A model generated the notes under the pieces. That model was not told where the DNA came from, did not search any database, and saw nothing but the letters and a program-made list of their open reading frames with translations. The position numbers and the translations under genes are program-made. Below, piece by piece: positions 10,506-64,000 of a stretch of 64,000 nucleotides of DNA; the stretch's first letter is position 1, and every line of letters begins with the position of its first letter. Source of the stretch: Balanoglossus misakiensis (lineage: Eukaryota > Animalia > Hemichordata); the NCBI GenBank assembly GCA_040954595.2, contig CM082586.2, positions 10,509,337-10,573,336 of the forward strand. Direction: 5' to 3'.

Positions 10506-10519
10506 CACTCAATGTGGAA

Positions 10520-13440: not shown

Positions 13441-13469
13441 CTAAACGTCTTATTTTAATTTATTTGCAG

Positions 13470-13955
13470 CTGTGCAGCAAGATCTGGAGTTATTAAGACA
13501 AGAGGTCAAGAACTCCCGGCTAGCAGCCTTTCGTCCCGGTACGCTCAGGAACCTGAATATTCAGTTCCGCTCCTATATAAGTTTTGCACTTCACTACGGT
13601 TTGTAAGCGGTGCCTACAACGTCCACGGTTTTGGCGCTTTATGCCCAGTTTCTTAGCAGGTCGTTTAGTAGTCCTGCATCCGTTACCAATTATATTGCGG
13701 GTGTCAAGACACTTCATATACTGACCGGCCACAGCCTGAAACCTTTCGAATGCCTGGGTTTCAAATTGGCGCTCACAGGCATCAGAAAAAGCAGTGTCCA
13801 CACACCTTCTCAGAAGTTGCCTTTGACAGTTCCCATGTTGGAGGAAATTGGCAACTATTATTGATCTTTCCAACAAGTTTCATTTAACAGTTTGGTGCGC
13901 TGTTTTAATTGGCTTCTTTGCCTTTTTGAGGAAATCGAACTTGGTTCCTCCCTAT
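13470..13955 (+). pseudogene. Tyrosine recombinase N-terminal half (truncated)
   Basis: AFRPGTLRNL..., LYAQFLSRSFSSPASVTNYIAGVKTLH, KLPLTVPML, then WCAVLIGFFAFLRKSNLVP (first catalytic Arg). Similarity stops at about 13955. Confidence 0.88.
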
Positions 13956-14095
13956 AAACCAAACAACTTGTTCATATTTACTGTATACTAAGTGTTATTT
14001 TTTCACAATTGGGAACAGGTACATCAAATACAAATAACAATGGTAGAGTCACATTATAATATTGTGAGAAATTACTAGTGTAAAGAAGAGTTATA

Positions 14096-38300: not shown

Positions 38301-39805
38301 TTCTGTGCCTCACAACAGAAATAGGTAAATAAACGAGGCTGTTTGGAAGCAACCATGGAAATTGTACAACTATCCGTCGATCTACAGAGTCTAGTGGAAA
38401 ACGTTCTTATGCGCATAGGCCTATCTATGTGTTATGCGCATCACAACAGAAATCGGTAAATAAACGAGGCTGTGTTTGGAAGCAACCATGGAAATTTTAG
38501 AACTATCTCTCGATCTACAGAGTCTAGTGGAAAACTTTATTATGCACATATGCCTATCTATGTGTTCTGCGCATCACAACAGAAATCGGTAAATAAACGA
38601 GGCTGTTTGGAAGCAACCATGGAAATTTTACAACTATCCGTCGATCTACAGAGTCTAGTGGAAAAATGTCTTATGCGCATAGGCCTATCATGTGTTCTGT
38701 GCCTCACAACAGAAATAGGTAAATAAACGAGGCTGTTTGGAAGCAACCATGGAAATTGTACAACTATCCGTCGATCTACAGAGTCTAGTGGAAAACGTTC
38801 TTATGCGCATAGGCCTATCTATGTGTTATGCGCATCACAACAGAAATCGGTAAATAAACGAGGCTGTATTTGGAAGCAACCATGAAATTTTACAACTATC
38901 CGTCGATCTACAGAGTCTGGTGGAAAACTTCCTTATGCGCATAGACCTATTACGTGTTCTGCGCCTCACAACAGAATTCGGTAAATAAACGAGGCTGTTT
39001 GGAAGCAACCATGGACATTGTACAACTATCCGTCGATCTACAAAGTCTAGTGGAAAACGTTCTTATGCGCATAGGCCTATCTATGTGTTATGCGCATCAC
39101 AACAGAAATCGCTAAATAAACGAGGCTGTATTTGGAAGCAACCATGAAATTTTACAACTATCTGTCGATCTACGGAGTATAGTGGAAAACGTTCATATGC
39201 GCATAGGCCTATATATGTGTTCTGCGCATCACAACAGAATTTTGTAAACAATCGAGGATGTGTTTGGAAGCAATCATGGAAATTTTAGAACTATCCGTCG
39301 ATCTACAGAGTCTAGTGGGAAACTTTCTTATGCGCATAGGCATATGTATGTGTTCAGCGCATCACAACAGAATTTTGTAAATGAACGAGGCTGTGTTTGG
39401 AAACAACCATGGAAATTTTAGAACTATCTCTCGATCTAAAGTTGAAAAGTTTCTTATGCGCATAGGCCTATTACGTGTTCTGCGCCTCACAACAGAATTC
39501 GGTAAATAAACGAGGCTGTTTGGAAGCAACAATGGAAATTTTAGAACTATCCGTCGATCTACGGAGTATAGTGGAAAACGTTCATATGCGCATAGGCCTA
39601 TATATGTGTTCTGCGCATCACAACAGAATTTTGTAAACAATCGAGGATGTGTTTGGAAGCAATCATGGAAATTTTAGAACTATCCGTCGATCTACAGAGT
39701 CTAGTGGGAAACTTTCTTATGCGCATAGGCATATGTATGTGTTCAGCGCATCACAACAGAATTTTGTAAATGAACGAGGCTGTGTTTGGAAACAACCATG
39801 GAAAT
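17390..39805. repeat. 130-133-bp satellite array, left arm (about 170 monomers)
   Basis: Monomer TGGAAGCAACCATGGAAATTTTAGAACTATCCGTCGATCTACAGAGTCTAGTGGAAAACGTTCTTATGCGCATAGGCCTATCTATGTGTTCTGCGCATCACAACAGAATTTTGTAAACAAACGAGGATGTGTT, starting at 17390, 17523, 17656 and so on. Confidence 0.98.
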
Positions 39806-39972
39806 TGTAACGGCCTTGTTGATCCATTGAATTTGTATACATGTATATCTGTATGTATGTTATACCTGTATCTTATAGTAATTAGTTATTCAATTATTCA
39901 TATGACGTAATAGTACTTACCTTCAATTGGTTGATCTTAATTATATGCAAACCACCTGGAAGTTTCATTTGA

Positions 39973-40049
39973 CCAATGAACACAAGCTAATCTGGCACTA
40001 TGATGTAATTGCTGATATAAAAGGACATGGTGCATAAAATTGGTCAGTT
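39973..40049 (+). promoter_or_regulatory. LTR Pol II core promoter: CCAAT, TATA, Inr
   Basis: CCAAT 39973-39977, TATAAAAG 40016-40023 and Inr-like TCAGTT 40044-40049, with its A (40046) exactly 30 bp after the TATA T. Confidence 0.75.
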
Positions 40050-40364
40050 CACCTCTGTAGCCAGACCGGCCACACACGTTGGAACTGACATGTATTTGTT
40101 CCATTTCAGGTTAGTTTCCTTGTACCTTACCTGTTGCTTGAAGCTTTGTATTTTGGTGCATTCTACCGACTCATTTCAGCACAAGTAATTGGTGTCTTTA
40201 ACTTGCGTCAATTTTCCAATTGTATGTCTATATTTTTCACTTGCATGAATTTTGGTGTATTCTGTTGGAGGTGAACTCCCATACATGTGTGTAATTTAGC
40301 AGTTCACCTCTGTAGCCAGACCGGCCACACACGTTGGAACTGACATGTATTTGTTCCATTTCAG
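40045..40364 (+). repeat. Intra-LTR perfect 65-bp direct repeat (40045-40109 and 40300-40364) bracketing a putative GT-AG intron (40110-40364)
   Basis: CAGTTCACCTCTGTAGCCAGACCGGCCACACACGTTGGAACTGACATGTATTTGTTCCATTTCAG occurs twice. Copy 1 is followed by GTTAGT, copy 2 by TTATTAAA. Same arrangement at 47461-47525 and 47716-47780. The repeat is certain; the intron is inferred. Confidence 0.9.
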
Positions 40365-40449
40365 TTATTAAATGTAAGGCCTATGTCTTTGTTACCCGTA
40401 ACCTGTTTGGTGTGAATATGTTGGAATGAACGGCGACAACCGTGACAAA

Positions 40450-40468
40450 TGGCGTAGTCGGCAGGATT
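40450..40468 (+). promoter_or_regulatory. Primer binding site complementary to the tRNA-Ser 3' end
   Basis: TGGCGTAGTCGGCAGGATT, 2 nt after the LTR. Its reverse complement AATCCTGCCGACTACGCCA matches the 3' end (with CCA) of animal tRNA-Ser(AGA/TGA type) as I recall it. Confidence 0.9.
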
Positions 40469-41520
40469 TGGCAATTCCTACGCAAGTTCTTGTTTCGGGA
40501 CGGAGAGGATGATACTGACAAGTGCCATGTTTTAACTGGTCAGAAGTGTCTGGACAACGGACAACGCCCAACCAGGTGTGTCTTTCGCTGAGCTGGACGT
40601 CCTTGGGGAGCCAACCGGACTGCAGACAGACGGGAGCCAGGTCCAAGCGTCAACGGCGAGGAAAATTCTCTGCAGAGTGCCAAGTGGTGAAGTCGCTGAA
40701 CTGTTACCGGCCGGAACTGTTTAGTGTGAAGTGTTCATCGCGGTATACAAGGTATTGTGTGTCCAGAACTTGACAGTGTTATTCCGTGCGAACTATAGAC
40801 AGTGCGCATAAATTCCGTCCGTGGCGCATAGTTTCCATCTGTGATAACTTCGGACTTGAACTTGTGGACTGGGTATTTTATTGCAAACGAACTTTCTGGT
40901 TATTCGCCGTAGAACCTGGTGTAACGTAATGTTTGTAAATTTTTCTTAGAAATTTCAATATTGTCTATATAATGCAATGTGGTCAAAGTAGTTTTGACTT
41001 TGATTTAATTGTTGAAGTGGGCTCCATGTGGATATAAACCCATGTTTTGTTGCCTTTAGCCTGCTTTAAAAAAAAAAAAAAAATTATTTTCTTTCAACAG
41101 TATATTTTGGTTAAGTGCTGAAGTATAAATTTTCTTTGTAAATTTCAGTTCATTATTTTCCAAACGACGTGAAAAAAAATTGTCAGCGCTTGTTGAAAAA
41201 AAAAAATATTAAGTTATAAGTTAAATATTGTATATTGACTTGAGTTAGTTTATTATTGTATTAGTTATTTAGTTGTTTCATTATTATTGAGACTGTCCAT
41301 GAATGGTCGTATTCATCCAAATCATACATTAGTCTCTATAGAACCTTTGGCAGTGTCTGTAAACTATTCTATGCTTAGTCCATTCCCTGTTAACGTATGT
41401 GCTATGCCAGTAGATACTGATATTAGTGTTAAGATTTTCCAGTGAAATAGCTTGCATTGCATCGTATTTAACGACACGTCAGAATCCTCCCAAATTGCCT
41501 TTCATTTTCTGGGGAAAAAA

Positions 41521-42945
41521 ATGGCTGTGTCCAAAATATCAATTCAAGAGCGAAGCATTTATGTGCAACACTTGCCTTTTGAATGTACAAAGAAACATTT
41601 TAGAGAATTTATCGAGTTACAGCTTGGTTTGGCCCAGGTTGATCAAATTTATATTTCTGATAAAGATTCCGCTTTTGTCATATTTGAGAATATAGAATCA
41701 GCCACAGCCGCTCTGCCAGTAATACATAAAAGCACTTTTGAAGAAAGCAAATTACGGGCAAGTCGTGTGACCACAGCCCGAGGGTTGGAACTGTGGCATT
41801 TAATTGAGGAAACCGAACAAAGTACTGGCCTAGATTACAATGAAACCAGTGATCCCAAGACATCCAAACCCAAAGCAGATGTACAGGAAATTATTAACAT
41901 GTTGAGTTTACTGTCTGAAGCAGATAGGAAAGCGGTTGCACAGGCCATATCACCTGCTCCACTGAAACCAATCGTATCAACCCCTATGCCACATCCGATT
42001 CCATTTCCAGCATTTCCAGTACCAACTTCAGTTGCAGATTCTTCACCATTTATTATGTCTTCACCTGCCCAAGCAGCTGCTGCACAGCCAGCCACAGCCA
42101 CTACTGCTTTTCACTCGGTGGAATTCCCAAGAATAGTCGTCTTCTCTGGCAAAGGTGATGTCACTTATGAAATGTGGCGATATGAAGTTCGAGCACTACA
42201 GAGGGAGAATGTGTTTCCGGAGACCATAATTATGCAGGCTGTTCGGAAATCCCTACGAGCGTCCGCTGCTGAAGTCCTACTACATATGGGAGAAGACATC
42301 ACAGTGTCCCGATTGATGGCGAAGATGAACATGGTCTTTGGGAAAGTATTGCCACCGGAAGCAGTTTTGGAAAAATTCTATACAGCACGACAAACGAAGA
42401 CAGAAAAGGTAGCAGAATGGGCCTGTCGCATCGAAGGACTTTTGGATGAACTCAGATCAGGTCAGTCCATCTCTAGTAATTCAGAAGAAACCATGCTTCG
42501 AACCAAATTCTTTTCTGGCCTGTCAGATGAGCACATTAAGAATGCAATCAGACACCGATATGATACGGGAGAAGATTATTCAGGATTGTTGCTAGCCGCA
42601 AGAAAGCTTGAAGTAAATAGGGAGACCACTACCAGGGTTCACCAAGCAACTGTTGCTGACAAGACGATGATAACCAAATTGGAGGAACTTACCAAAGGTC
42701 TGAAGAACTTAGCTGAGAAGGTTGCTGAACTAGAGAAGCGAACTTCAACATCATCAACTCCAGAGTCTACTTTTCGCCGACGTGTCAACAATGAAAATGG
42801 CCGGGATCGGCGTGGCAACGATGGAACTCGCCAACCCAAACAAGTTTTCCCAGGCAACTGCTTCAAGTGTGGTGAACATGGACACAAAAAGACAGACTGT
42901 CCTTTAAATGGGGAGCGACCAGGCATCCGGAGGGACATGCGCTAG
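41521..42945 (+). CDS. gag: Gag (474 aa): N-terminal RRM-like domain, Pro/Ala linker, PNMA-like capsid, coiled coil, CCHC zinc knuckle
   Basis: First ATG of the ORF is at 41521 (the track uses TTG 41452). Motifs IYVQHLP / AFVIFEN, FSGKGDVTYEMWRYEV...RKSLRASAAEVL, and CFKCGEHGHKKTDC. Confidence 0.93.
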   Translation: MAVSKISIQERSIYVQHLPFECTKKHFREFIELQLGLAQVDQIYISDKDSAFVIFENIESATAALPVIHKSTFEESKLRASRVTTARGLELWHLIEETEQSTGLDYNETSDPKTSKPKADVQEIINMLSLLSEADRKAVAQAISPAPLKPIVSTPMPHPIPFPAFPVPTSVADSSPFIMSSPAQAAAAQPATATTAFHSVEFPRIVVFSGKGDVTYEMWRYEVRALQRENVFPETIIMQAVRKSLRASAAEVLLHMGEDITVSRLMAKMNMVFGKVLPPEAVLEKFYTARQTKTEKVAEWACRIEGLLDELRSGQSISSNSEETMLRTKFFSGLSDEHIKNAIRHRYDTGEDYSGLLLAARKLEVNRETTTRVHQATVADKTMITKLEELTKGLKNLAEKVAELEKRTSTSSTPESTFRRRVNNENGRDRRGNDGTRQPKQVFPGNCFKCGEHGHKKTDCPLNGERPGIRRDMR

Positions 42946-42949
42946 GTCG
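42903..42949 (+). promoter_or_regulatory. -1 programmed ribosomal frameshift signal
   Basis: T TTA AAT heptamer in the gag frame (42903-42909), 6-nt spacer, then stem CGACC-AG-GCAT...ATGC-G-CT-A-GGTCG (42916-42949). The -1 frame is open from 42876 into pol. Confidence 0.8.
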
Positions 42950-45900
42950 GAACGGTAACAGTCCCTCTAATGTTATTGATTCTTTAATAGGCCACGCCAA
43001 TGAAACTGAGATTGTGCTGGAAGGATCCTCGTGTATTGCGCTGATAGACACCGGGTCCATGGTATCTACTGTTGCTGACACTTTTAACAGAGAGAAGCTA
43101 CAGAAACCAATTCATGACCTGAACAACTTGGTGAAGGTAGAAGGGGCTAGTGGTACAGAAGTTCCTTACCTTGGTTATATTGAAGTTGAAGTGAAATTCC
43201 CAGATAGCCATGGACAAGAGATGTCTAAAGATGTATTATTGCTTGTTGTTGAAGACACGGAATATAATCAGATGGTTCCAGTTGTGATAGGCACAAATGT
43301 TCTCCAACATTTTGTGGATGAAGATACACAGTACAGTACAGATCTATCCTCAGTATGGAGACTAGCATACCAAGCGACTATCCACCGGCAGAGGGCCGAA
43401 GGTAGGACATTTACAGTTACCACTACTAAACCCATAACCATTGGACCATACGAACGCACAGTCATCCATGGATTTTGCAGAGTGGACCTAAGAAATTGTC
43501 AATCAGTAGTTGTGGTGGAACCAGAAAATGACAGACTTTTACCTGGTGGTTTACTTGTTACTCCAGCCGTGTTGAAGTTAGAGCCTCGTGGTAATTCATG
43601 TCGAATCCCAGTAATGGTGACCAACTATGGAGCACGTGCTGTCACAGTTCCCCCTAAAAGCACCCTATGTAACATGAACTTAGCATCTAATGTCTCACAG
43701 CCTTTAGATCCATATGGAGATGATATTGATACAAACTCAGATGGGACCACCTCACCAAAAGTACCCGATTGGCTGATAAAAGACCTGGGATTACAAGAGG
43801 CAGATACAGAATTAACAGAAATCCAGAAAGACCAAGCCTTGGCTACCATTGGTAAATGGCAAACCGTGTTCTCTACAGGTGAGAGAGATTTGGGACACAC
43901 AACATTGGTAACACATTCGATAAAGTTAACGGATGAAACCCCCTTTAAAGATAAATACCGTCGAATCCCTATGGGTATGTACGAAGAATTGCAACAGTAC
44001 CTGCAAGATATGCTACAGAGTGGTGTGATTAGAGAATCAAACAGCCCGTGGTCCTCAAATGTTGTATGTGTCAGAAAACCTGATGGGAAGCTGAGGGTGT
44101 GTATTGATTATAGACGTCTCAACGCCAAAACCATTAAAGACGCTTACGCATTACCCCGGGTATTGGATACGCTTGATAACCTTAGTAACGCCGAGTGGTT
44201 TTCATCGCTTGATCTACGGTCTGGATATTACCAAGTAGAGATGGCGGAAGACGACAAAGCGAAGACAGCTTTCACGGTGGGAAACTTCGGCTTATTTGAA
44301 TTCAACCGTATGTCTATGGGTCTGACCAACGCACCTGCAACTTTCCAGCGTCTCATGGAGAAGTGTTTTGGAGAATTGGCGTTCAGAGAATGTTGTGTGT
44401 ATTTAGATGACATCATAGTATTTTCGAAGACTTTTGAAGACCACCTCAATAGATTGGAGCGGGTATTCCAGCGGCTGGCATCACATGGATTAAAGTTGAA
44501 GGCAACGAAATGTGTTTTATTCCAGAAGAAGGTGAAATATCTTGGACACGTGGTATCAGCCGACGGAATTACAACGGACCCAGACAAGGTAGCAGCTCTG
44601 AAGGAATGGCCAATACCCACTACTGTAACAGAACTGAGAAGATTTCTTGGATTTGCAGGGTATTACAGGAGATTTATCCAAAGCTACAGTAATATTGCCA
44701 AGCCACTTAACGACTTGCTGTGTGGACGTCAGTCAAGGAATAAGGCGGGAAATTTTGAAAAACTCCAGTGGGGACAACAGGAACAACAAGCTTTCGACAC
44801 TCTGAGGAAGAGCCTAATGTCGTCACCAATACTAGCCTTTGCTGACTACTCACTTCCATTTGAAATACATACTGATGCAAGTTCCACAGGTCTGGGAGCA
44901 GTGCTGTATCAACGCCAGAAAGGTATTCTCAGAGTAATTGCCTATGCAAGTAGAGGACTCACCAAGTCTGAAAGTAATTATCCAGCTCATAAATTAGAAT
45001 TTTTGGCACTGAAATGGGCCGTCACCAAGAAGTTCAACGACTACCTGTATGGAAGCAAATTCACGGTGCATACAGACAACAACCCTTTGACGTATGTGTT
45101 AACTTCTGCGAAACTGGATGCGGTGGGACACAGATGGTTGTCAGACTTGTCATTGTACGACTTCTCTATTGTTTACCGGAGTGGTAAGAAGAATATAGAG
45201 GCTGACGCTTTGTCTAAGATTCCATGGAATAGAGAGAATCCAGAGACGGAAACCAATCTGGGAGCCGATGTAGTCCAGGCGCTTTGTCGAGCAACAGAAG
45301 GTCCATACGTAACTTCATTCGGAATGGTAGCAGATGAGGACAGACCTGCAGTAGTTCAAGGTGGGGATGATGTGTTCTGGAAGACGGAGCAGTCCAAAGA
45401 TTCAACAATACGGTATGTGACTGATCAGCTTGAAAAGGACCACAAACCATTTATGAGAGATCATACAGGAGATATCAGACTACTTATACGAGATTGGAAA
45501 CGCCTTGTTCTGAAGAATGGAGTCCTATACAGGAAATGCTTCATCGATGATATACAATATTTGCAACTTGTCTTACCAGTACACCATAGAAAAGATGTCC
45601 TGGAGGAACTACATGATAAACTTGGACACTTTGGCCAAGATAAAACCCTGGATCTGGTACGACGAAGATTCTACTGGCCTAGGATGTCGATGGATGTTCA
45701 AAAGAAAGTGGAACATTGTTTACCATGCATTCGCAGGAAAAGTTCAACTTCCTTACCCAGAACTCCCTTGGTTAATATTCACACATCACAACCGATGGAA
45801 ATGGTGTGCATCGACTTTCTCCATATACCAACACCAGATCAAGGATATAGCAACATATTAGTGATGACGGACCATTTCACTCGATACGCTATAGCAGTAC

Positions 45901-47162
45901 CTACAAAGAACCAGTCTGCCAAAACAACTGCCAAAGCATTGTTTGAACATTTGATTTTGCATTATGGGTTCCCAGGACGATTACACAGTGACCAGGGGCG
46001 AAACTTTGAGTCGTCTACAATTCAGGAACTTTGCCGAATAGCAAATATTAAGAAGTCCAGGACCACTCCATACCACCCCCAGGGAAATGGAATGTGCGAA
46101 CGATTTAATAAGACGTTATTACAGATGCTTGGAACTATGAATGAAGACAACAAAACAAGATGGGCTTCACATGTCAATACGATGGTTCATGCCTATAATT
46201 CTACAAAGCATGAAAGCACCGGATATTCACCTTTCTTTTTGATGTTTGGTCGTGAACCAAGACTGCCTATAGATGTATCTGGACATGCAGACCAGACCAA
46301 CCTAGAATATGGTGGAACAGTTTCAGATTATGTGACGAAACTTGCCGAACGGTTGGATTACGCCTATAAAGTAGCAACGGAACGGTCTGTTAAGTCTGGT
46401 GAACGGCAGAAGAAGTCATATGATAGAAAAGTGAAGGTGGCCATAATACAACCTGGTGATACTGTGTTGGTGAAGAATACAGGACCTAAAGACAATTACA
46501 AATTGGCAGACCAATGGGAAAAGGATCCATATACAGTGATTTCACAGCCCATAGAAGACATTCCAGTATACGTGGTACAAAAACAAGTTAAGGGTGGAAG
46601 GAAGCGGACACTACATAGAAATTTGCTACTCCCAATACCAATAATTCCGGACGAACTGGATGACGATGTTAACACCAAGATGACGCAGCGTGATGTTAAG
46701 CAGAGTGTACCGGGTGTTATCAACGATGCTACCCAGGATGCAGTGGACGAAGAGGATGACGGCATTGGTAAATTGCAATTCGTGTCAACTATCAACTTGC
46801 CAACAGAACACAATGCTCTTAATCCTACTGCTGCAGAATTCATCCCATCCAGAAGAGAAAGTTCCCTGATGGACAACCCCACAGGTATGGTTAATCCGGA
46901 TGGACCTTCTCAAATACTTACCTCAGATTTCTCGAATCATATTTTGCAAAGTACGGATGGTTGGTCATCGAGCGATCCAGATGGTATCACTCCTGCTACA
47001 ACCAACATCAGTCCTGACTCCAGTAGTAGTACTCAACCTGAACCACGCTATCCTACACGACAGAGACGACCTCCAGATAGATATAGTCCCGAACAATGGA
47101 ATCTAAAACAGTTTGCTCATACGACTTTATCTTCTATACCATTTATTAATTGCCACTATTAA
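42903..47162 (+). CDS. pol: Pol: aspartic protease, dUTPase-like spacer, RT, RNase H, integrase (expressed as Gag-Pol fusion)
   Basis: LIDTGS (D at 43047), YLDD (44400-44411), TDASS RNase H, HDKLGH...CLPC zinc motif, IDF/SDQG/MCERFN DDE triad, WEKDPY (GPY/F-like) and C-terminal RQRRPPDRY. The start given is the inferred frameshift site; the track ORF is 43014-47162. Confidence 0.97.
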   Translation, partial: FKWGATRHPEGHALGRNGNSPSNVIDSLIGHANETEIVLEGSSCIALIDTGSMVSTVADTFNREKLQKPIHDLNNLVKVEGASGTEVPYLGYIEVEVKFPDSHGQEMSKDVLLLVVEDTEYNQMVPVVIGTNVLQHFVDEDTQYSTDLSSVWRLAYQATIHRQRAEGRTFTVTTTKPITIGPYERTVIHGFCRVDLRNCQSVVVVEPENDRLLPGGLLVTPAVLKLEPRGNSCRIPVMVTNYGARAVTVPPKSTLCNMNLASNVSQPLDPYGDDIDTNSDGTTSPKVPDWLIKDLGLQEADTELTEIQKDQALATIGKWQTVFSTGERDLGHTTLVTHSIKLTDETPFKDKYRRIPMGMYEELQQYLQDMLQSGVIRESNSPWSSNVVCVRKPDGKLRVCIDYRRLNAKTIKDAYALPRVLDTLDNLSNAEWFSSLDLRSGYYQVEMAEDDKAKTAFTVGNFGLFEFNRMSMGLTNAPATFQRLMEKCFGELAFRECCVYLDDIIVFSKTFEDHLNRLERVFQRLASHGLKLKATKCVLFQKKVKYLGHVVSADGITTDPDKVAALKEWPIPTTVTELRRFLGFAGYYRRFIQSYSNIAKPLNDLLCGRQSRNKAGNFEKLQWGQQEQQAFDTLRKSLMSSPILAFADYSLPFEIHTDASSTGLGAVLYQRQKGILRVIAYASRGLTKSESNYPAHKLEFLALKWAVTKKFNDYLYGSKFTVHTDNNPLTYVLTSAKLDAVGHRWLSDLSLYDFSIVYRSGKKNIEADALSKIPWNRENPETETNLGADVVQALCRATEGPYVTSFGMVADEDRPAVVQGGDDVFWKTEQSKDSTIRYVTDQLEKDHKPFMRDHTGDIRLLIRDWKRLVLKNGVLYRKCFIDDIQYLQLVLPVHHRKDVLEELHDKLGHFGQDKTLDLVRRRFYWPRMSMDVQKKVEHCLPCIRRKSSTSLPRTPLVNIHTSQPMEMVCIDFLHIPTPDQGYSNILVMTDHFTRYAIAVPTKNQSAKTTAKALFEHLILHYGFPGRLHSDQGRNFESSTIQELCRIANIKKSRTTPYHPQGNGMCERFNKTLLQMLGTMNEDNKTRWASHVNTMVHAYNSTKHESTGYSPFFLMFGREPRLPIDVSGHADQTNLEYGGTVSDYVTKLAERLDYAYKVATERSVKSGERQKKSYDRKVKVAIIQPGDTVLVKNTGPKDNYKLADQWEKDPYTVISQPIEDIPVYVVQKQVKGGRKRTLHRNLLLPIPIIPDELDDDVNTKMTQRDVKQSVPGVINDATQDAVDEEDDGIGKLQFVSTINLPTEHNALNPTAAEFIPSRRESSLMDNPTGMVNPDGPSQILTSDFSNHILQSTDGWSSSDPDGITPATTNISPDSSSSTQPEPRYPTRQRRPPDRYSPEQWNLKQFAHTTLSSIPFINCHY

Positions 47163-47190
47163 TCAAATATCTTTAACTTACTTTAAATGA

Positions 47191-47221
47191 CGAGGACGCC
47201 ATTTCTCCTCGCAGGGGTGCG
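47191..47221 (+). promoter_or_regulatory. Short, atypical polypurine tract preceded by a GAGGAC-motif hairpin
   Basis: CGAGGA-cgccatttc-TCCTCG, then CAGGGGTGCG immediately before the 3' LTR. Position fits a plus-strand primer. Confidence 0.55.
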
Positions 47222-47863
47222 TGTAACGGCCTTGTTGATCCATTGAATTTGTATACATGTATATCTGTATGTATGTTATACCTGTATCTTATAGTAATTA
47301 GTTATTCAATTATTCATATGACGTAATAGTACTTACCTTCAATTGGTTGATCTTAATTATATGCAAACCACCTGGAAGTTTCATTTGACCAATGAACACA
47401 AGCTAATCTGGCACTATGATGTAATTGCTGATATAAAAGGACATGGTGCATAAAATTGGTCAGTTCACCTCTGTAGCCAGACCGGCCACACACGTTGGAA
47501 CTGACATGTATTTGTTCCATTTCAGGTTAGTTTCCTTGTACCTTACCTGTTGCTTGAAGCTTTGTATTTTGGTGCATTCTACCGACTCATTTCAGCACAA
47601 GTAATTGGTGTCTTTAACTTGCGTCAATATTCCAATTGTATGTCTATATTTTTCACTTGCATGAATTTTGGTGTATTCTGTTGGAGGTGAACTCCCATAC
47701 ATGTGTGTAATTTAGCAGTTCACCTCTGTAGCCAGACCGGCCACACACGTTGGAACTGACATGTATTTGTTCCATTTCAGTTATTAAATGTAAGGCCTAT
47801 GTCTTTGTTACCCGTAACCTGTTTGGTGTGAATATGTTGGAATGAACGGCGACAACCGTGACA
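47222..47863 (+). repeat. 3' LTR (642 bp) with candidate poly(A) signal ATTAAA at 47783-47788
   Basis: Copy of the 5' LTR; ATTAAA followed by GT-rich sequence. Confidence 0.98.
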
Positions 47864-50800
47864 AAATTTTAGAACTATCTCTCGATCTACAGAGTCTAGT
47901 GGAAAACTTTATTATGCACATAGGCCTATCTATGTATTATGCGCATCACAACAGAAATCGGTAAATAAACGAGGCTGTATTTGGAAGCAACCATGTAAAT
48001 TTTACAACTATCCGTCGATCTACAGAGTCTGGTGGAAAACTTTCTTATGCGCATAGGCCTATTACGTGTTCTGCGCCTCACAACAGAAATCGGTAAATAA
48101 ACGAGGCTGTTTGGAAGCAACCATGTAAATTTTAGAACTATCCGTCGATCTACAGAGTCTAGTGGAAAAACGTTCATGTGCGCATAGGCCTATCATGTGT
48201 TATGCACATCACAACAGAATTTTGTAAACAAACGAGGCTTTGTTTGGAAGCAACAATGGAAATTTTAGAACTATCTGTCGATCTACGGAGTATAGTGGAA
48301 AACGTTCATATGCGCATAGGCCTATATATGTGTTCTGCGCATCACAACAGAATTTTGTAAACAATCGAGGATGTGTTTGGAAGCAATCATGGAAATTTTA
48401 GAACTATCCGTCGATCTACAGAGTCTAGTGGGAAACTTTCTTATGCGCATAGGCATATGTATGTGTTCAGCGCATCACAACAGAATTTTATAAATGAACG
48501 AGGCTGTGTTTGGAAACAACCATGGAAATTTTACAACTATCCGTCGATCTAAGGTGTCTGGTGGAAAACTTTCTTATGCGCATAGGCCTATTACGTGCTC
48601 TGCGCCTCACAACAGAATTCGGTAAATAAACGAGGCTGTTTGGAAGCAACCATGGAAATTTTAGAACTATCCGTCGATCTACAGAGTCTAGTGGAAAAAT
48701 GTCTTATGCGCATAGGCCTATCATGTGTTCTGCGCCTCACAACAGAAATCGGTAAATAAACGAGGCTGTTTGGAAGCAACCATGGACATTGTACAACTAT
48801 CTTTCGATCTACGGAGTATAGTGGAAAACGTTCATATGCGCATAGGCCTATATATGTGTTCTGCGCATCACAACAGAATTTTGTAAACAATCGAGGATGT
48901 GTTTGGAAGCAATCATGGAAATTTTAGAACTATCCGTCGATCTACAGAGTCTAGTGGGAAACTTTCTTATGCGCATAGGCATATGTATGTGTTCAGCGCA
49001 TCACAACAGAATTTTGTAAATGAACGAGGCTGTGTTTGGAAACAACCATGGAAATTTTAGAACTATCTCTCGATCTAAAGTTGAAAAGTTTCTTATGCGC
49101 ATAGGCCTATTACGTGTTCTGCGCCTCACAACAGAATTCGGTAAATAAACGAGGCTGTTTGGAAGCAACAATGGAAATTTTAGAACTATCCGTCGATCTA
49201 CAGAGTCTAGTGGAAAAATGTCTTATGCGCATAGGCCTATCATGTGTTCTGCGCCTCACAACAGAAATCGGTAAATAAACGAGGCTGTTTGGAAGCAACC
49301 ATGGAAATTGTACAACTATCCGTCGATCTACATAGTCTAGTGGAAAACGTTCTTATGCGCATAGGCCTATCTATGTGTTATGCGCATCACAACAGAAATC
49401 GGTAAATAAACGAGGCTGTATTTGGAAGCAATCATGAAATTTTACAACTATCCGTCGATCTACAGAGTCTGGTGGAAAACTTCCTTATGCGCATAGACCT
49501 ATTACGTGTTCTGCGCCTCACAACAGAATTCGGTAAATAAACGATGCTGTTTGGAAGCAACCATGGAAATTGTACAACTATCCGTCGATCTACAGAGTCT
49601 AGTGGAAAACGTTCTTATGCGCATAGGCCTATCTATGTGTTATGCGCATCACAACAGAAATCGGTAAATAAACGAGGCTGTGTTTGGAAGCAACCATGGA
49701 CATTTTAGAACTATCTCTCGATCTACAGAGTCTATAGTGGAAAACTTTCTTATGCACATAGGCCTATCTATGTGTTCTGCGCCTCACAACAGAAATCGGT
49801 AAATAAACGAGGCTGTTTAAAAGCAACCATGGAAATTTTACAGCTATCCGTCGATCTACAGAGTCTAGTGGAAACGTTCTTATGCGCATAGGCCTATATA
49901 TGTGTTCTGCGTATCACAACAGAATTTTGTAAACAAACGAGGCTGTGTTTGGAAGCAACCATGGACATTTTAGAACTATCTCTCGATCTACAGAGTCTAT
50001 AGTGGAAAACTTTCTTATGCACATATGCCTATCTATGTGTTCTGCGCCTCACAACAGAATTCGGTAAATAAACGAGGCTGTTTGGAAGCAACCATGGAAA
50101 TTTTACAACTATCCGTCGATCTACAGAGTCTAGTGGAAAACGTTATTATGCGCATAGGCCTATATATGTGTTCTGCGCATCACAACAGAATTTTGTAAAC
50201 AAACGAGGCTGTTTGGAAGCAACCATGGAAATTTTAAACTATCCGTCGATCTACAGAGTCTAGTGGAAAACGTTATTATGCGCATAGGCCTATATATGTG
50301 TTCTGCGCATCACAACAGAATTTTGTAAACAAACGAGGCTGTGTTTGGAAGCAACCATGGAAATTTTAGAACTATCTCTCGATCTACAGAGTCTAGTGGA
50401 AAACTTTATTATGCACATATGCCTATCTATGTGTTCTGCGCATCACAACAGAAATCGGTAAATAAACGAGGCTGTTTGGAAGCAACCATGGAAATTTTAC
50501 AACTATCCGTCGATCTACAGAGTCTGGTGGAAAACTTTCTTATGCGCATAGGCCTATTACGTGCTCTGCGCCTCACAACAGAATTCGGTAAATAAACGAG
50601 GCTGTTTGGAAGCAACCATGGAAATTTTAGAACTATCCGTCGATCTACAGAGTCTAGTGGAAAAATGTCTTATGCGCATAGGCCTATCATGTGTTCTGTG
50701 CCTCACAACAGAAATCGGTAAATAAACGAGGCTGTTTGGAAGCAACCATGGAAATTGTACAACTATCCGTCGATCTACAGAGTCTAGTGGAAAACGTTCT

Positions 50801-53800
50801 TATGCGCATAGGCCTATCTATGTGTTATGCGCATCACAACAGAAATCGGTAAATAAACGAGGCTGTATTTGGAAGCAACCATGGACATTGTACAACTATC
50901 CGTCGATCTACAGAGTCTAGTGGAAAACGTTCTTATGCGCATAGGCCTATCTATGTGTTATGCGCATCACAACAGAAATCGGTAAATAAACGAGGCTGTA
51001 TTTGGAAGCAACCATGAAATTTTACAACTATCCGTCGATCTACAGAGTCTGGTGGAAAACTTCCTTATGCGCATATACCTATTACGTGTTCTGCGCCTCA
51101 CAACAGAATTCGGTAAATAAACGAGGCTGTTTGGAAGCAACCATGGACATTGTACAACTATCCGTCGATCTACAAAGTCTAGTGGAAAACGTTCTTATGC
51201 GCATAGGCCTATCTATGTGTTATGCGCATCACAACAGAAATCGCTAAATAAACGAGGCTGTATTTGGAAGCAACCATGAAATTTTACAACTATCCGTCGA
51301 TCTACAGAGTCTAGTGGAAAAATGTTTCATGCGCATAGGCCTATCATGTGTTCTGCGCCTCACAACAGAAATCGGTAAATAAACGAGGCTGTTTGGAAGC
51401 AACCATGGAAATTTTACAGCTATCCGTCGATCTACATAGTCTAGTGGAAACGTTCTTATGCGCATAGGCCTATATATGTGTTCTGCGCATCACAACAGAA
51501 TTTTGTAAACAAACGAGGCTGTGTTTGGTAGCAACCATGGACATTTTAGAACTATCTCTCGATCTACAGAGTCTATAGTGGAAAACTTTCTTATGCACAT
51601 ATGCCTATCTATGTGTTCTGCGCCTCACAACAGAATTCGGTAAATAAACGAGGCTGTTTGGAAATTTTACAACTATCCGTCGATCTACAGAGTCTAGTGG
51701 AAAACGTTATTATGCGCATAGGCCTATATATGTGTTCTGCGCATCACAACAGAATTTTGTAAACAAACGAGGCTGTGTTTGGAAGCAACCATGGACATTT
51801 TAGAACTATCTCTCGATCTACAGAGTCTATAGTGGAAAACTTTCTTATGCACATATGCCTATCTATGTGTTCTGCGCCTCACAACAGAATTCGGTAAATA
51901 AACGAGGCTGTTTGGAAGCAACCATGGAAATTTTACAACTATCCGTCGATCTACAGAGTCTAGTGGAAAACGTTATTATGCGCATAGGCCTATATATGTG
52001 TTCTGCGCATCACAACAGAAATCGGTAAATAAACGAGGCTGTATTTGGAAGCAACCATGGACATTGTACAACTATCCGTCGATCTACAGAGTCTAGTGGA
52101 AAAATGTCTTATGCGCATAGGCCTATCATGTGTTCTGTGCCTCACAACAGAAATCGGTAAATAAACGAGGCTGTTTGGAAGCAACCATGGAAATTGTACA
52201 ACTATCCGTCGATCTACAGAGTCTAGTGGAAAACGTTCTTATGCGCATAGGCCTATCTATGTGTTATGCGCATCACAACAGAAATCGGTAAATAAACGAG
52301 GCTGTATTTGGAAGCAACCATGGACATTGTACAACTATCCGTCGATCTACAGAGTCTAGTGGAAAACGTTCTTATGCGCATAGGCCTATCTATGTGTTAT
52401 GCGCATCACAACAGAAATCGGTAAATAAACGAGGCTGTATTTGGAAGCAACCATGAAATTTTACAACTATCCGTCGATCTACAGAGTCTGGTGGAAAACT
52501 TCCTTATGCGCATATACCTATTACGTGTTCTGCGCCTCACAACAGAATTCGGTAAATAAACGAGGCTGTTTGGAAGCAACCATGGACATTGTACAACTAT
52601 CCGTCGATCTACAAAGTCTAGTGGAAAACGTTCTTATGCGCATAGGCCTATCTATGTGTTATGCGCATCACAACAGAAATCGCTAAATAAACGAGGCTGT
52701 ATTTGGAAGCAACCATGAAATTTTACAACTATCCGTCGATCTACAGAGTCTAGTGGAAAAATGTTTCATGCGCATAGGCCTATCATGTGTTCTGCGCCTC
52801 ACAACAGAAATCGGTAAATAAACGAGGCTGTTTGGAAGCAACCATGGAAATTTTACAGCTATCCGTCGATCTACATAGTCTAGTGGAAACGTTCTTATGC
52901 GCATAGGCCTATATATGTGTTCTGCGCATCACAACAGAATTTTGTAAACAAACGAGGCTGTGTTTGGTAGCAACCATGGACATTTTAGAACTATCTCTCG
53001 ATCTACAGAGTCTATAGTGGAAAACTTTCTTATGCACATATGCCTATCTATGTGTTCTGCGCCTCACAACAGAATTCGGTAAATAAACGAGGCTGTTTGG
53101 AAATTTTACAACTATCCGTCGATCTACAGAGTCTAGTGGAAAACGTTATTATGCGCATAGGCCTATATATGTGTTCTGCGCATCACAACAGAATTTTGTA
53201 AACAAACGAGGCTGTGTTTGGAAGCAACCATGGACATTTTAGAACTATCTCTCGATCTACAGAGTCTATAGTGGAAAACTTTCTTATGCACATATGCCTA
53301 TCTATGTGTTCTGCGCCTCACAACAGAATTCGGTAAATAAACGAGGCTGTTTGGAAGCAACCATGGAAATTTTACAACTATCCGTCGATCTACAGAGTCT
53401 AGTGGAAAACGTTATTATGCGCATAGGCCTATATATGTGTTCTGCGCATCACAACAGAATTTTGTAAACAAACGAGGCTGTGTTTGGAAGCAACCATGGA
53501 AATTTTAGAACTATCTCTCGATCTACAGAGTCTAGTGGAAAACTTTATTATGCACATATGCCTATCTATGTGTTCTGCGCATCACAACAGAAATCGGTAA
53601 ATAAACGAGGCTGTTTGGAAGCAACCATGGAAATATTACAGCTATCCGTCGATCTACAGAGTCTAGTGGAAACGTTCTTATGCGCATAGGCCTATATATG
53701 TGTTCTGCGCCTCACAACAGAATTTTGTAAACAAACGAGGCTGTGTTTGGTAGCAACCATGGACATTTTAGAACTATCTCTCGATCTACAGAGTCTATAG

Positions 53801-56800
53801 TGGAAAACTTTCTTATGCACATATGCCTATCTATGTGTTCTGCGCCTCACAACAGAATTCGGTAAATAAACGAGGCTGTTTGGAAGCAACCATGGAAATT
53901 TTACAACTATCCGTCGATCTACAGAGTCTAGTGGAAAACGTTATTATGCGCATAGGCCTATATATGTGTTCTGCGCATCACAACAGAATTTTGTAAACAA
54001 ACGAGGCTTTGTTTGGAAGCAACAATGGAAATTTTAGAACTATCTCTCGATCTACTGAGTATAGTGGAAAACGTTCATATGCGCATAGGCCTATCATGTG
54101 TTATGCACATCACAACATAATTTTGTAAACAAACGAGGCTTTGTTTGGAAGCAACCGTGGAAATTTTAGAACTATCTCTCGATCTACAGAGTATAGTGGA
54201 AAACGTTCATATGCGCATAGGCCTATCATGTGTTATGCACATCACAACATAATTTTGTAAACAAACGAGGCTTTGTTTGGAAGCAACCGTGGAAATTTTA
54301 GAACTATCTCTCGATCTACAGAGTATAGTGGAAAACGTTCATATGCGCATATGCTATCATGTGTTATGCACATCACAACATAATTTTGTAAACAAACGAG
54401 GCTTTGTTTGGAAGCAACATTTGAAATTTTAGAACTATCTGTCGATCTACGGAGTATAGTGGAAAACGTTCATATGCGCATAGGCCTATATATGTGTTCT
54501 GCGCATCACAACAGAATTTTGTAAATGAACGAGGCTGTGTTTGGAAACAACCATGGAAATTTTAGAACTATCTCTCGATCTAAAGTTGAAAAGTTTCTTA
54601 TGCGCATAGGCCTATTACGTGTTCTGCGCCTCACAACAGAATTCGGTAAATAAACGAGGCTGTTTGGAAGCAACAATGGAAATTTTAGAACTATCCGTCG
54701 ATCTACGGAGTATAGTGGAAAACGTTCATATGCGCATAGGCCTATATATGTGTTCTGCGCATCACAACAGAATTTTGTAAACAATCGAGGATGTGTTTGG
54801 AAGCAATCATGGAAATTTTAGAACTATCCGTCGATCTACAGAGTCTAGTGGGAAACTTTCTTATGCGCATAGGCATATGTATGTGTTCAGCGCATCACAA
54901 CAGAATTTTGTAAATGAACGAGGCTGTGTTTGGAAACAACCATGGAAATTTTAGAACTATCTCTCGATCTACAGAGTCTAGTGGAAAACTTTATTATGCA
55001 CATAGGCCTATCTATGTATTATGCGCATCACAACAGAAATCGGTAAATAAACGAGGCTGTATTTGGAAGCAACCATGTAAATTTTACAACTATCCGTCGA
55101 TCTACAGAGTCTGGTGGAAAACTTTCTTATGCGCATAGGCCTATTACGTGTTCTGCGCCTCACAACAGAAATCGGTAAATAAACGAGGCTGTTTGGAAGC
55201 AACCATGTAAATTTTAGAACTATCCGTCGATCTACAGAGTCTAGTGGAAAAACGTTCATGTGCGCATAGGCCTATCATGTGTTATGCACATCACAACAGA
55301 ATTTTGTAAACAAACGAGGCTTTGTTTGGAAGCAACAATGGAAATTTTAGAACTATCTGTCGATCTACGGAGTATAGTGGAAAACATTCATATGCGCATA
55401 GGCCTATATATGTGTTCTGCGCATCACAACAGAATTTTGTAAACAATCGAGGATGTGTTTGGAAGCAATCATGGAAATTTTAGAACTATCCGTCGATCTA
55501 CAGAGTCTGGTGGAAAACTTTCTTATGCGCATAGGCCTATTACGTGCTCTGCGCCTCACAACAGAATTCGGTAAATAAACGAGGCTGTTTGGAAGCAACC
55601 ATGGAACTTTTAGAACTATCCGTCGATCTACAGAGTCTAGTGGAAAAATGTCTTATGCGCATAGGCCTATCATGTGTTCTGTGCCTCACAACAGAAATCG
55701 GTAAATAAACGAGGCTGTTTGGAAGCAACCATGGAAATTGTACAACTATCCGTCGATCTACAGAGTCTAGTGGAAAACGTTCTTATGCGCATAGGCCTAT
55801 CTATGTGTTATGCGCATCACAACAGAAATCGGTAAATAAACGAGGCTGTATTTGGAAGCAACCATGAAATTTTACAACTATCCGTCGATCTACAGAGTCT
55901 GGTGGAAAACTTCCTTATGCGCATAGACCTATTACGTGTTCTGCGCCTCACAACAGAATTCGGTAAATAAACGAGGCTGTTTGGAAGCAACCATGGACAT
56001 TGTTCAACTATCCGTCGATCTACAAAGTCTAGTGGAAAACGTTCTTATGCGCATAGGCCTATCTATGTGTTATGCGCATCACAACAGAAATCGCTAAATA
56101 AACGAGGCTGTATTTGGAAGCAACCATGAAATTTTACAACTATCCGTCGATCTACAGAGTCTAGTGGAAAAATGTCTCATGCGCATAGGCCTATCATGTG
56201 TTCTGCGCCTCACAACAGAATTCGGTAAATAAACGAGGCTGTTTGGAAGCAACCATGGAAATTTTACAACTATCCGTCGATCTACAGAGTCTAGTGGAAA
56301 ACGTTATTATGCGCATAGGCCTATATATGTGTTCTGCGCATCACAACAGAATTTTGTAAACAAACGAGGCTGTGTTTGGAAGCAACCATGGACATTTTAG
56401 AACTAACTCTCGATCTACAGAGTCTATAGTGGAAAACTTTCTTATGCACATATGCCTATCTATGTGTTCTGCGCCTCACAACAGAATTCGGTAAATAAAC
56501 GAGGCTGTTTGGAAGCAACCATGGAAATTTTACAACTATCCGTCGATCTACAGAGTCTAGTGGAAAACGTTATTATGCGCATAGGCCTATATATGTGTTC
56601 TGCGCATCACAACAGAATTTTGTAAACAAACGAGGCTGTGTTTGGAAGCAACCATGGAAATTTTAGAACTATCTCTCGATCTACAGAGTCTAGTGGAAAA
56701 CTTTATTATGCACATATGCCTATCTATGTGTTCTGCGCATCACAACAGAAATCGGTAAATAAACGAGGCTGTTTGGAAGCAACCATGGAAATTTTACAAC

Positions 56801-59800
56801 TATCCGTCGATCTACAGAGTCTGGTGGAAAACTTTCTTATGCGCATAGGCCTATTACGTGCTCTGCGCCTCACAACAGAATTCGGTAAATAAACGAGGCT
56901 GTTTGGAAGCAACCATGGAAATTTTAGAACTATCCGTCGATCTACAGAGTCTAGTGGAAAAATGTCTTATGCGCATAGGCCTATCATGTGTTCTGTGCCT
57001 CACAACAGAAATCGGTAAATAAACGAGGCTGTTTGGAAGCAACCATGGAAATTGTACAACTATCCGTCGATCTACAGAGTCTGGTGGAAAACTTCCTTAT
57101 GCGCATAGGCCTATCTATGTGTTATGCGCATCACAACAGAAATCGGTAAATAAACGAGGCTGTATTTGGAAGCAACCATGAAATTTTACAACTATCCGTC
57201 AATCTACAGAGTCTGGTGGAAAACTTTCTTATGCGCATAGACCTATTACGTGTTCTGCGCCTCACAACAGAATTCGGTAAATAAACGAGGCTGTTTGGAA
57301 GCAACCATGGACATTGTACAACTATCCGTCGATCTACAAAGTCTAGTGGAAAACGTTCTTATGCGCATAGGCCTATCTATGTGTTATGCGCATCACAACA
57401 GAAATCGCTAAATAAACGAGGCTGTATTTGGAAGCAACCATGAAATTTTACAACTATCCGTCGATCTACAGAGTCTAGTGGAAAAATGTCTCATGCGCAT
57501 AGGCCTATCATGTGTTCTGCGCCTCACAACAGAAATCGGTAAATAAACGAGGCTGTTTGGAAGCAACCATGGAAATTTTACAGCTATCTGTCGATCTACA
57601 GAGTCTAGTGGAAACGTTCTTATGCGCATAGGCCTATATATGTGTTCTGCGCATCACAACAGAATTTTGTAAACAAACGAGGCTGTGTTTGGTAGCAACC
57701 ATGGACATTTTAGAACTATCTCTCGATCTACAGAGTCTATAGTGGAAAACTTTCTTATGCACATATGCCTATCTATGTGTTCTGCGCCTCACAACAGAAT
57801 TCGGTAAATAAACGAGGCTGTGTTTGGAAACAACCATGGAAATTTTAGAACTATCTCTCGATCTACAGAGTCTAGTGGAAAACTTTATTATGCACATAGG
57901 CCTATCTATGTATTATGCGCATCACAACAGAAATCGGTAAATAAACGAGGCTGTATTTGGAAGCAACCATGTAAATTTTACAACTATCCGTCGATCTACA
58001 GAGTCTGGTGGAAAACTTTCTTATGCGCATAGGCCTATTACGTGTTCTGCGCCTCACAACAGAAATCGGTAAATAAACGAGGCTGTTTGGAAGCAACCAT
58101 GTAAATTTTAGAACTATCCGTCGATCTACAGAGTCTAGTGGAAAAACGTTCATGTGCGCATAGGCCTATCATGTGTTATGCACATCACAACAGAATTTTG
58201 TAAACAAACGAGGCTTTGTTTGGAAGCAACAATGGAAATTTTAGAACTATCTGTCGATCTACGGAGTATAGTGGAAAACATTCATATGCGCATAGGCCTA
58301 TATATGTGTTCTGCGCATCACAACAGAATTTTGTAAACAATCGAGGATGTGTTTGGAAGCAATCATGGAAATTTTAGAACTATCCGTCGATCTACAGAGT
58401 CTAGTGGGAAACTTTCTTATGCGCATAGGCATATGTATGTGTTCTGCGCATCACAACAGAAATCGGTAAATAAACGAGGCTGTTTGGAAGCAACCATGGA
58501 AATTTTACAACTATCCGTCGATCTACAGAGTCTGGTGGAAAACTTTCTTATGCGCATAGGCCTATTACGTGCTCTGCGCCTCACAACAGAATTCGGTAAA
58601 TAAACGAGGCTGTTTGGAAGCAACCATGGAACTTTTAGAACTATCCGTCGATCTACAGAGTCTAGTGGAAAAATGTCTTATGCGCATAGGCCTATCATGT
58701 GTTCTGTGCCTCACAACAGAAATCGGTAAATAAACGAGGCTGTTTGGAAGCAACCATGGAAATTGTACAACTATCCGTCGATCTACAGAGTCTAGTGGAA
58801 AACGTTCTTATGCGCATAGGCCTATCTATGTGTTATGCGCATCACAACAGAAATCGGTAAATAAACGAGGCTGTATTTGGAAGCAACCATGAAATTTTAC
58901 AACTATCCGTCGATCTACAGAGTCTGGTGGAAAACTTCCTTATGCGCATAGACCTATTACGTGTTCTGCGCCTCACAACAGAATTCGGTAAATAAACGAG
59001 GCTGTTTGGAAGCAACCATGGACATTGTACAACTATCCGTCGATCTACAAAGTCTAGTGGAAAACGTTCTTATGCGCATAGGCCTATCTATGTGTTATGC
59101 GCATCACAACAGAAATCGCTAAATAAACGAGGCTGTATTTGGAAGCAACCATGAAATTTTACAACTATCCGTCGATCTACAGAGTCTAGTGGAAAAATGT
59201 CTCATGCGCATAGGCCTATCATGTGTTCTGCGCCTCACAACAGAATTCGGTAAATAAACGAGGCTGTTTGGAAGCAACCATGGAAATTTTACAACTATCC
59301 GTCGATCTACAGAGTCTAGTGGAAAACGTTATTATGCGCATAGGCCTATATATGTGTTCTGCGCATCACAACAGAATTTTGTAAACAAACGAGGCTGTGT
59401 TTGGAAGCAACCATGGACATTTTAGAACTAACTCTCGATCTACAGAGTCTATAGTGGAAAACTTTCTTATGCACATATGCCTATCTATGTGTTCTGCGCC
59501 TCACAACAGAATTCGGTGAATAAACGAGGCTGTTTGGAAGCAACCATGGAAATTTTACAACTATCCGTCGATCTACAGAGTCTAGTGGAAAACGTTATTA
59601 TGCGCATAGGCCTATATATGTGTTCTGCGCATCACAACAGAATTTTGTAAACAAACGAGGCTGTGTTTGGAAGCAACCATGGAAATTTTAGAACTATCTC
59701 TCGATCTACAGAGTCTAGTGGAAAACTTTATTATGCACATATGCCTATCTATGTGTTCTGCGCATCACAACAGAAATCGGTAAATAAACGAGGCTGTTTG

Positions 59801-62800: not shown

Positions 62801-64000
62801 CAGAATTTTGTAAACAAACGAGGCTGTGTTTGGAAGCAACCATGGAAATTTTAGAACTATCTCTCCATCTACAGAGTCTAGTGGAAAACTTTATTATGCA
62901 CATATGCCTATCTATGTGTTCTGCGCATCACAACAGAAATCGGTAAATAAACGAGGCTGTTTGGAAGCAACCATGGAAATTTTACAACTATCCGTCGATC
63001 TACAGAGTCTGGTGGAAAACTTTCTTATGCGCATAGGCCTATTACGTGCTCTGCGCCTCACAACAGAATTCGGTAAATAAACGAGGCTGTTTGGAAGCAA
63101 TCATGGAAATTTTAGAACTATCCGTCGATCTACAGAGTCTAGTGGGAAACTTTCTTATGCGCATAGGCATATGTATGTGTTCAGCGCATCACAACAGAAT
63201 TTTATAAATGAACGAGGCTGTGTTTGGAAACAACCATGGAAATTTTACAACTATCCGTCGATCTACGGAGTCTGGTGGAAAACTTTCTTATGCGCATAGG
63301 CCTATCATGTGTTCTGCGCCTCACAACAGAAATCGGTAAATAAACGAGGCTGTTTGGAAGCAACCATGGAAATTGTACAACTATCCGTCGATCTACATAG
63401 TCTAGTGGAAAACGTTCTTATGCGCATAGGCCTATCTATGTGTTATGCGCATCACAACAGAAATCGGTAAATAAACGAGGCTGTATTTGGAAGCAATCAT
63501 GAAATTTTACAACTATCCGTCGATCTACAGAGTCTGGTGGAAAACTTCCTTATGCGCATAGACCTATTACGTGTTCTGCGCCTCACAACAGAATTCGGTA
63601 AATAAACGATGCTGTTTGGAAGCAACCATGGAAATTGTACAACTATCCGTCGATCTACAGAGTCTAGTGGAAAACGTTCTTATGCGCATAGGCCTATCTA
63701 TGTGTTATGCGCATCACAACAGAAATCGGTAAATAAACGAGGCTGTGTTTGGAAGCAACCATGGACATTTTAGAACTATCTCTCGATCTACAGAGTCTAT
63801 AGTGGAAAACTTTCTTATGCACATATGCCTATCTATGTGTTCTGCGCCTCACAACAGAAATCGGTAAATAAACGAGGCTGTTTAAAAGCAACCATGGAAA
63901 TTTTACAGCTATCCGTCGATCTACAGAGTCTAGTGGAAACGTTCTTATGCGCATAGGCCTATATATGTGTTCTGCGCATCACAACAGAATTTTGTGAACA
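47864..64000. repeat. 130-135-bp satellite array, right arm (about 122 monomers), runs off the right edge
   Basis: Same monomer family; resumes in register after the TSD (AAAT-TTTAGAACT). Confidence 0.98.

Follow-up and report, generated by a model that had tools for sequence, protein, structure and literature searches.

On the usual view, the genomic RNA of retroviruses and long terminal repeat (LTR) elements has to stay unspliced: an intron that has once been spliced out is lost for good, and retroviruses cope with this by export tricks. The genomic RNA of foamy viruses is unspliced. Pao, of the BEL/Pao group, is said in the title of a paper to carry tandem R copies within its LTR. In the excerpt of PMC12789967 that we used, the textbook R region is one identical stretch at both RNA ends, and an LTR donor upstream of the poly(A) signal is described as governing foamy virus poly(A) choice. 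The abstract of a foamy virus study likewise places a donor in both LTRs; silencing of the 5' poly(A) signal is there ascribed, as a proposal, to U1, and masking of the 3' donor to RNA structure (PMC3694450). For a Penelope-like element, the sections consulted describe a short intron 46 bp past the start site that is spliced in most transcripts and required for reporter expression; unspliced transcripts are reported, and retention of the intron is explained by selection (PMC2377424).

The window (the whole 64,000-nt stretch of Balanoglossus misakiensis DNA that was analysed) contains an intact Ty3/gypsy retrotransposon on the forward strand at 39806-47863. It is bounded by direct LTRs with TG...CA ends (39806-40447 and 47222-47863, 642 bp each) that differ by a single mismatch (40213/47629), and by a 4-bp target-site duplication, AAAT, at 39802-39805 and 47864-47867. 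Two nucleotides past the 5' LTR lies the predicted primer binding site (40450-40467), a TGG-starting 18-mer that we take to match tRNA-Ser; 17-18 nt of it recur after LTR-like CA ends in other pol-bearing loci. The gag ORF (41446-42945, first ATG at 41521) encodes a PNMA-type domain, a CCHC knuckle and, at the N-terminus (41555-41755), a weak RRM match of 20.6 bits, just under the Pfam cut-off of 20.7. It is followed in the -1 frame by a pol ORF (42876-47162) with a protease-like N-terminus, recognised by eye from its motif, and reverse transcriptase (RT), RNase H and integrase in that order. A TTTAAAT heptamer in the gag-pol overlap (42903-42909), with a GC-rich stretch after it (42903-42955), is likely to be a -1 frameshift signal given the frame of pol. 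The closest named Gag is from another hemichordate, Ptychodera flava (63% identity across 59% of the query). A Gmr1-type gypsy, in which integrase precedes RT (PR-IN-RT-RH order), was ruled out by the position of integrase after RNase H, and a Penelope-like element was ruled out by the integrase core and the absence of a GIY-YIG match. Apart from the design of its LTRs, the element is an ordinary gypsy member.

The 1.07-kb leader (40450-41520) contains acceptor-like sites near 41059, 41100 and 41149 and a donor-like site near 40752; the stretch from 40046 to 41520 holds 22 ATGs. An RNA spliced from 40110 to any of these acceptor-like sites would lack the primer site. The element is inserted in a satellite array with a 133-bp unit (17253-39805 and 47864-64000) and a higher-order spacing of 133, 133 and 261; two other retroelement loci, L139 and L172, also adjoin long tandem arrays. 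Elsewhere in the window, broken ORFs with weak RT and zf-RVT matches at 9949-15160 are probably the remains of a decayed non-LTR retrotransposon.

The longest repeat within the LTR is exactly 65 bp (40045-40109 and 40300-40364, period 255), and its four copies, two per LTR, are identical, as a preliminary description of the locus had stated. Repeats in 60 dinucleotide-block shuffles reached at most 14 bp, and the next-longest real repeat in the LTR is 9 bp. The preliminary description had also placed the start of copy 1 at an initiator 30 bp after a TATA box and its end at a splice donor, and both placements held. The predicted TATA box, TATAAAAG (40016-40023), begins 30 nt before the initiator A at 40046, the predicted +1, and 29 nt before copy 1, which opens with the initiator-like TCAGTT and represents the predicted first exon (40045-40109). 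Copy 1 closes exactly at CAG/GTTAGT, the top match among 634 LTR positions (8 of 9 bases) to the donor consensus used for scoring, MAG/GTRAGT. The predicted intron (40110-40364, 255 nt) consists of this GTTAGT donor, a 190-nt unique spacer and copy 2 (40300-40364), which would serve as its 3' end. The CTGAC, pyrimidine tract and final CAG acceptor noted earlier in copy 2 are present: CTGAC (40340-40344) lies 25 nt before the end, as it does in each copy, and the pyrimidine share ahead of the final CAG is 0.71, against 0.55 LTR-wide. By motif alone, the full spliceosomal set is there (donor, branch point, pyrimidine tract and YAG). We add to the earlier description an ATTAAA (40367-40372), two bases past the copy-2 AG and followed by GT-rich sequence, as a predicted poly(A) signal; within the LTR, the predicted donor precedes this signal. 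The 3' LTR repeats this arrangement, with copy 1 at 47461-47525, copy 2 at 47716-47780, ATTAAA at 47783-47788 and a predicted retained intron at 47526-47780, and the single mismatch between the LTRs falls in the spacer. We note that the start site, donor, branch point, acceptor and poly(A) roles are predictions from consensus motifs.

In folding predictions, a U3 stretch (39986-39994) pairs with the donor; RNA contains this stretch only where it has been read through the 3' LTR (47402-47410). The predicted unpaired value of the donor was 0.03 with U3 and 0.38 without it, compared with 0.15-0.42 in 12 U3 shuffles; such masking is predicted in only one of five families, that of the window, and is not general. 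Stretches resembling the 5' end of U1 (CTTACCT) also occur at 40123-40134 and 39914-39923; the former lies in the spacer and, by prediction, would base-pair with the donor when the RNA has its 5' context.

We think it probable that the LTR repeat reflects a cap-proximal intron that ends in a duplicate of the first exon: splicing would remove it at the capped 5' end alone, and minus-strand transfer onto copy 2 would rebuild it. RNA would start near 40046 and lose 40110-40364, leaving the primer binding site intact. The intron of the 3' LTR would be retained, so that the RNA would end in U3, copy 1, spacer, copy 2 and a short tail. Donor use depends on the cap, which offers a possible source for this asymmetry; the 3' donor would be defined by neither a cap nor an upstream exon. 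A poly(A) signal at the acceptor or within about 30 nt of it (three of five families) could favour 3' retention, and in the window family U3 is predicted to mask the 3' donor. Minus-strand strong-stop DNA, composed of exon 1 and U5, could then pair with copy 2 and the short tail before the poly(A) site, and extension would copy the spacer, copy 1 and U3 into a complete intron-bearing LTR. On each such transfer, copy 2 would be overwritten by copy 1, wholly or in part. Partial differences between the copies, such as those seen, would remain if the template were switched early, in the tail or in copy 2, or if some unspliced templates were used. An intron-less LTR would result if the transfer went to copy 1 or if the 3' end were spliced. 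A single misdirected jump could also create the layout in an ancestor whose LTR held an ordinary intron, since any exon that ends in CAG brings a new acceptor with it; the layout may have originated more than once, every time in a single step. A regenerating mechanism would account for a repeat that spans the start site to the donor and no further, for copies that evolve together, and for an exon end that is pyrimidine-rich because it must double as an acceptor.

The layout recurs in four relatives (L163, L168, L256 and L307). Scans of prokaryotic genome bins yielded eukaryote-type retroelement contigs, which were then examined whole, and the repeat scan covered 197 non-redundant gag- or pol-bearing loci, the window included. 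Exact repeats of at least 20 nt were found in 50 of these loci, 717 repeats altogether, and those ending at AG/GT numbered ten in sense and none in antisense. Four of the ten are LTR repeats (the window twice, L163 and L168); the remaining six are in L172, L186, L139 and L350. A stricter repeat filter kept six (three sense, none antisense), yet it lost L168 and paired the wrong copies of L307. L256 and L307 were recognised by reading LTRs by eye, outside the repeat scan.

In L163, the repeat (104 bp, 100% identity) starts on the A of TCATT and ends at CAG/GTATGT. The repeats of L168 (about 90 bp, 95.6%) and L307 (85 bp, 98.8%, on a gapped and permuted scaffold) both start with GCAGTT and end at CAG/GTAAGC and CAG/GTAATA, respectively, while that of L256 (57 bp, 94.7%) ends at CAG/GCAAGT, a full-consensus GC-type donor. 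Copy 2 terminates in CAG in all four relatives. The repeat end is the sole best donor match in four of the five LTRs (one of 634-700 positions) and one of four tied best donors among 1240 positions in L307. Multiplied over the four relatives, these site fractions come to about 1e-11, uncorrected for the two picks by eye and the later GC rule; the donor ranks are only indicative because L256 and L307 were picked by eye and the GC-donor rule was made after L256 had been seen. The repeat start falls on an initiator-like A, or no more than 2 nt from it, in four of five families (exactly on the A in L163); in L256 it lies about 7 nt past the initiator-like motif. The copies are separated by 150-240 nt of unique spacer in the four measurable LTRs, predicted introns are 213-329 nt, and the distance from the copy-2 acceptor to the LTR end is 37-171 nt in the three relatives measured. 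We saw no three-copy arrays in the LTRs examined. Pol of the four relatives is 37-48% identical to that of the window, and no blastn match connects any of the five LTRs at E<0.01. Since the layout recurs over one clade with unrelated LTR sequences, a chance origin is very unlikely. Each of these four unrelated LTR families of the clade has a donor exactly at the end of copy 1 and a YAG at the end of copy 2.

Other signals were more variable among the five families. Three have AATAAA or ATTAAA no more than 32 nt from the acceptor, and A[AT]TAAA is absent from copy 2 through 60 nt past the acceptor in L163 and L307. In L168 and L256, AATAAA is inside the repeat itself. A branch-point consensus falls within the repeat in just two families. 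The pyrimidine share of the exon end is 0.59-0.82 across the five, compared with 0.51-0.55. A G lies immediately 5' of copy 2 in the window, L168 and L307, not in L163 or L256; the cases are few, and this G might be a copied cap.

All five layout families fell in one 21-row clade (support 97) of a quick RT-RNase H tree of 70 rows, built without reference elements of the named mollusc gypsy clades (MolGy and C-clade). Eight members of this clade are proteins without DNA, five lack a complete LTR (L164, L166, L192, L308 and L309) and eight are assessable. The layout is present in five of the eight. The other three (L165, L253 and L380) have no repeat, so the repeat is not required, though L165 does carry a TATA box and a donor-like CAG/GTAGAT. 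Pairs of donor- and acceptor-like sites without an exon duplicate occur in L011, which is outside the tree (399-231 nt before the primer site), in L165 (539-655) and in L310 (near 3150-3205), and these LTRs or LTR-like ends possibly represent the ancestral state. L307, and probably L168 and L308 as well, include forms made up of U3, a single copy and U5; they may be real intron-less LTRs or assembly collapse. We lean, with somewhat less assurance than for the mechanism proposed above, towards the view that an animal gypsy clade replicates via spliced genomic RNA, regenerating its own intron by asymmetric minus-strand transfer onto the exon duplicate.

Wider searches added no further cases. Relatives were absent from viral contigs, a Gag-alignment scan of genome contigs gave no matches, and a primer-site scan of metagenomes gave 114 loci, about 45 of them LTR-like and all distant, none with the layout. 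Searches at the level of genus, family and order (45, 301 and 30 genomes, with three weaker-scoring family-level genomes left out) found no further case among the sequences retrieved. The layout was not found in L395-L397, nor was a second copy of the L308 or L309 LTR ends found in G002. This 9-Mb bacterial genome bin, the source of L167, L253 and L307 among others, has 103 gypsy-type integrase matches and carries heavy host contamination. Several Pol relatives at 52-57% identity are filed under lucinid-clam symbiont genomes, and we infer that they are host DNA.

Contigs from sequencing runs point to a sister family in which the two copies changed together. One contig (runs X1 and X2) carries a spacer with 18 substitutions and 3 indels relative to the window (about 11%), retains the donor and continues into a diverged copy 2. 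Record 21 of run X4 links copy 1 to the same spacer changes, and the copy-1 changes are also present in X2. Changes at repeat positions 40076-40089 are present in both copies of the sister family, so both were altered in parallel after the families split. Copy 1 and copy 2 are also each traversed without a break by a contig of their own; in a graph assembly (presumably with a word length of 31), this implies that the two copies are not identical. Homogenisation of the copies therefore looks real but incomplete, and the apparent difference between the sister-family copies suggests that overwriting is incomplete in some cycles. The expectation that relatives would keep both copies in concert, with their splice signals, was borne out by shared changes despite spacer drift. 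For the idea of a self-regenerating intron, the comparative prediction held, and the claim that the intron is kept through each cycle was probably too strong, given the apparently different sister copies, the single-copy forms and the assessable LTRs without a repeat.

Transcript data were sparse. Raw RNA runs X7 and X13 (6% and 13% sampled, two of 18 RNA runs) gave 0 reads, too little to test splicing. The joint 40109>40365 is not listed in contigs of X1-X5, where the junction sequence would be indistinguishable from copy 2 plus U5. In X5, a run whose kind was guessed to be DNA, one contig crosses the donor unspliced (40052-40176), and contig depth is about 95-160 over U3 and spacer against 16.7 over U5 and leader; this profile resembles 3'-biased RNA, but it comes from one study, contig depth cannot show RNA level, and we give it no weight. 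In X1, the spacer contig has a depth of 2986, similar to U5 (3033), although depth is no copy number. In X2, depth near the TATA region (39932-40057) is about 100,000, with many diverged variants, against 792 in the leader, and this peak reflects either further abundant families sharing the promoter stretch or library bias.

Three other explanations of the repeat were weighed against regeneration during reverse transcription. One accepts that the intron is real and spliced in mRNA, and holds that replication uses mostly unspliced RNA, so that the duplicate is an occasionally renewed scar without function. It would account for the donor- and acceptor-like sites without a repeat in the clade member L165 and in L011, for the single-copy forms in assemblies, and for the copies that do not match fully in L168, in L256 and, it appears, in the sister family. 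In L168, however, divergence between copies (95.6% identity) is close to that between its LTRs (96.8%), as decay after insertion predicts. Direct repeats are readily deleted during reverse transcription, which counts against a functionless duplicate, as do the perfect or near-perfect repeats in five of eight assessable LTRs of unrelated sequence and the pyrimidine-rich exon ends. We regard this explanation as unlikely.

The two remaining explanations do without splicing to copy 2. If the LTR served poly(A) control, U1 bound to the donor would silence a first signal, and the repeat would be a duplicated R with an active signal downstream. AATAAA inside the repeat in L168 and L256 suits this idea, as does the predicted U3 masking of the window donor; the foamy virus donor upstream of the poly(A) signal works in this way and is masked by structure at the 3' end, according to the abstract of PMC3694450. 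Poly(A) control nevertheless leaves unexplained the exact stop of the repeat at a donor in all five families, the initiator-like start and the lasting likeness of the copies, and in the window the signal is outside the repeat; we consider it improbable. Neutral duplication within R by template slippage, with splice-like motifs by chance, would be in keeping with how common internal repeats are among the 197 loci and with the tandem R copies indicated by the Pao title. Against it, the repeats end at the top donor match in unrelated LTRs, the AG/GT endings are all in sense, and a long unique spacer parts the copies with no three-copy arrays among those seen. Neutral duplication is thus largely refuted, and we give it hardly any weight.

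If the intron is indeed regenerated, the element gains the benefits of splicing yet keeps its intron. The likely benefits are a genomic and messenger RNA that is spliced, with effects on export and translation, and silencing of the 5' poly(A) signal by U1. The layout is also relevant to the choice that LTR elements make between two poly(A) signals of identical sequence. Such a cycle would be a new mode of intron inheritance and an exception to the unspliced-template rule for retroelements, and one-way homogenisation, with copy 1 imposed on copy 2, would be built into it. It would offer a concrete route by which reverse transcription keeps or re-creates introns instead of removing them. The layout has a visible genomic signature, a repeat that begins at the start site and stops at the donor, for which any animal assembly can be searched.

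The LTR design appears to be undescribed so far. An exon duplicate closing an LTR intron was not found in the literature searched, a scope that leaves out most subscription papers and Repbase and Dfam notes. The word "intron" is absent from the main text of a mollusc LTR-element survey, as far as our copy of it extends (PMC6238403), and the portion at hand of a paper on planarian Burro elements does not mention an LTR intron (PMC6431247). With Ty3/gypsy elements that have a PNMA-type Gag (Metaviridae-type), the window element shares LTRs, target-site duplication, a predicted primer site, a gag with PNMA and CCHC domains, and the order PR-RT-RH-IN. The likeness to BEL/Pao elements, going by the title mentioned above, is that R-region sequence is repeated inside the LTR; there, unlike in the window, the copies are tandem. 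The Penelope-like element differs in not being an LTR element, and an exon duplicate is not mentioned in the sections consulted (PMC2377424). The foamy virus abstract has neither an LTR-internal acceptor nor an exon duplicate (PMC3694450). In contrast to the textbook R, identical at both RNA ends, the 5' R of the window element would be spliced and the 3' R would not.
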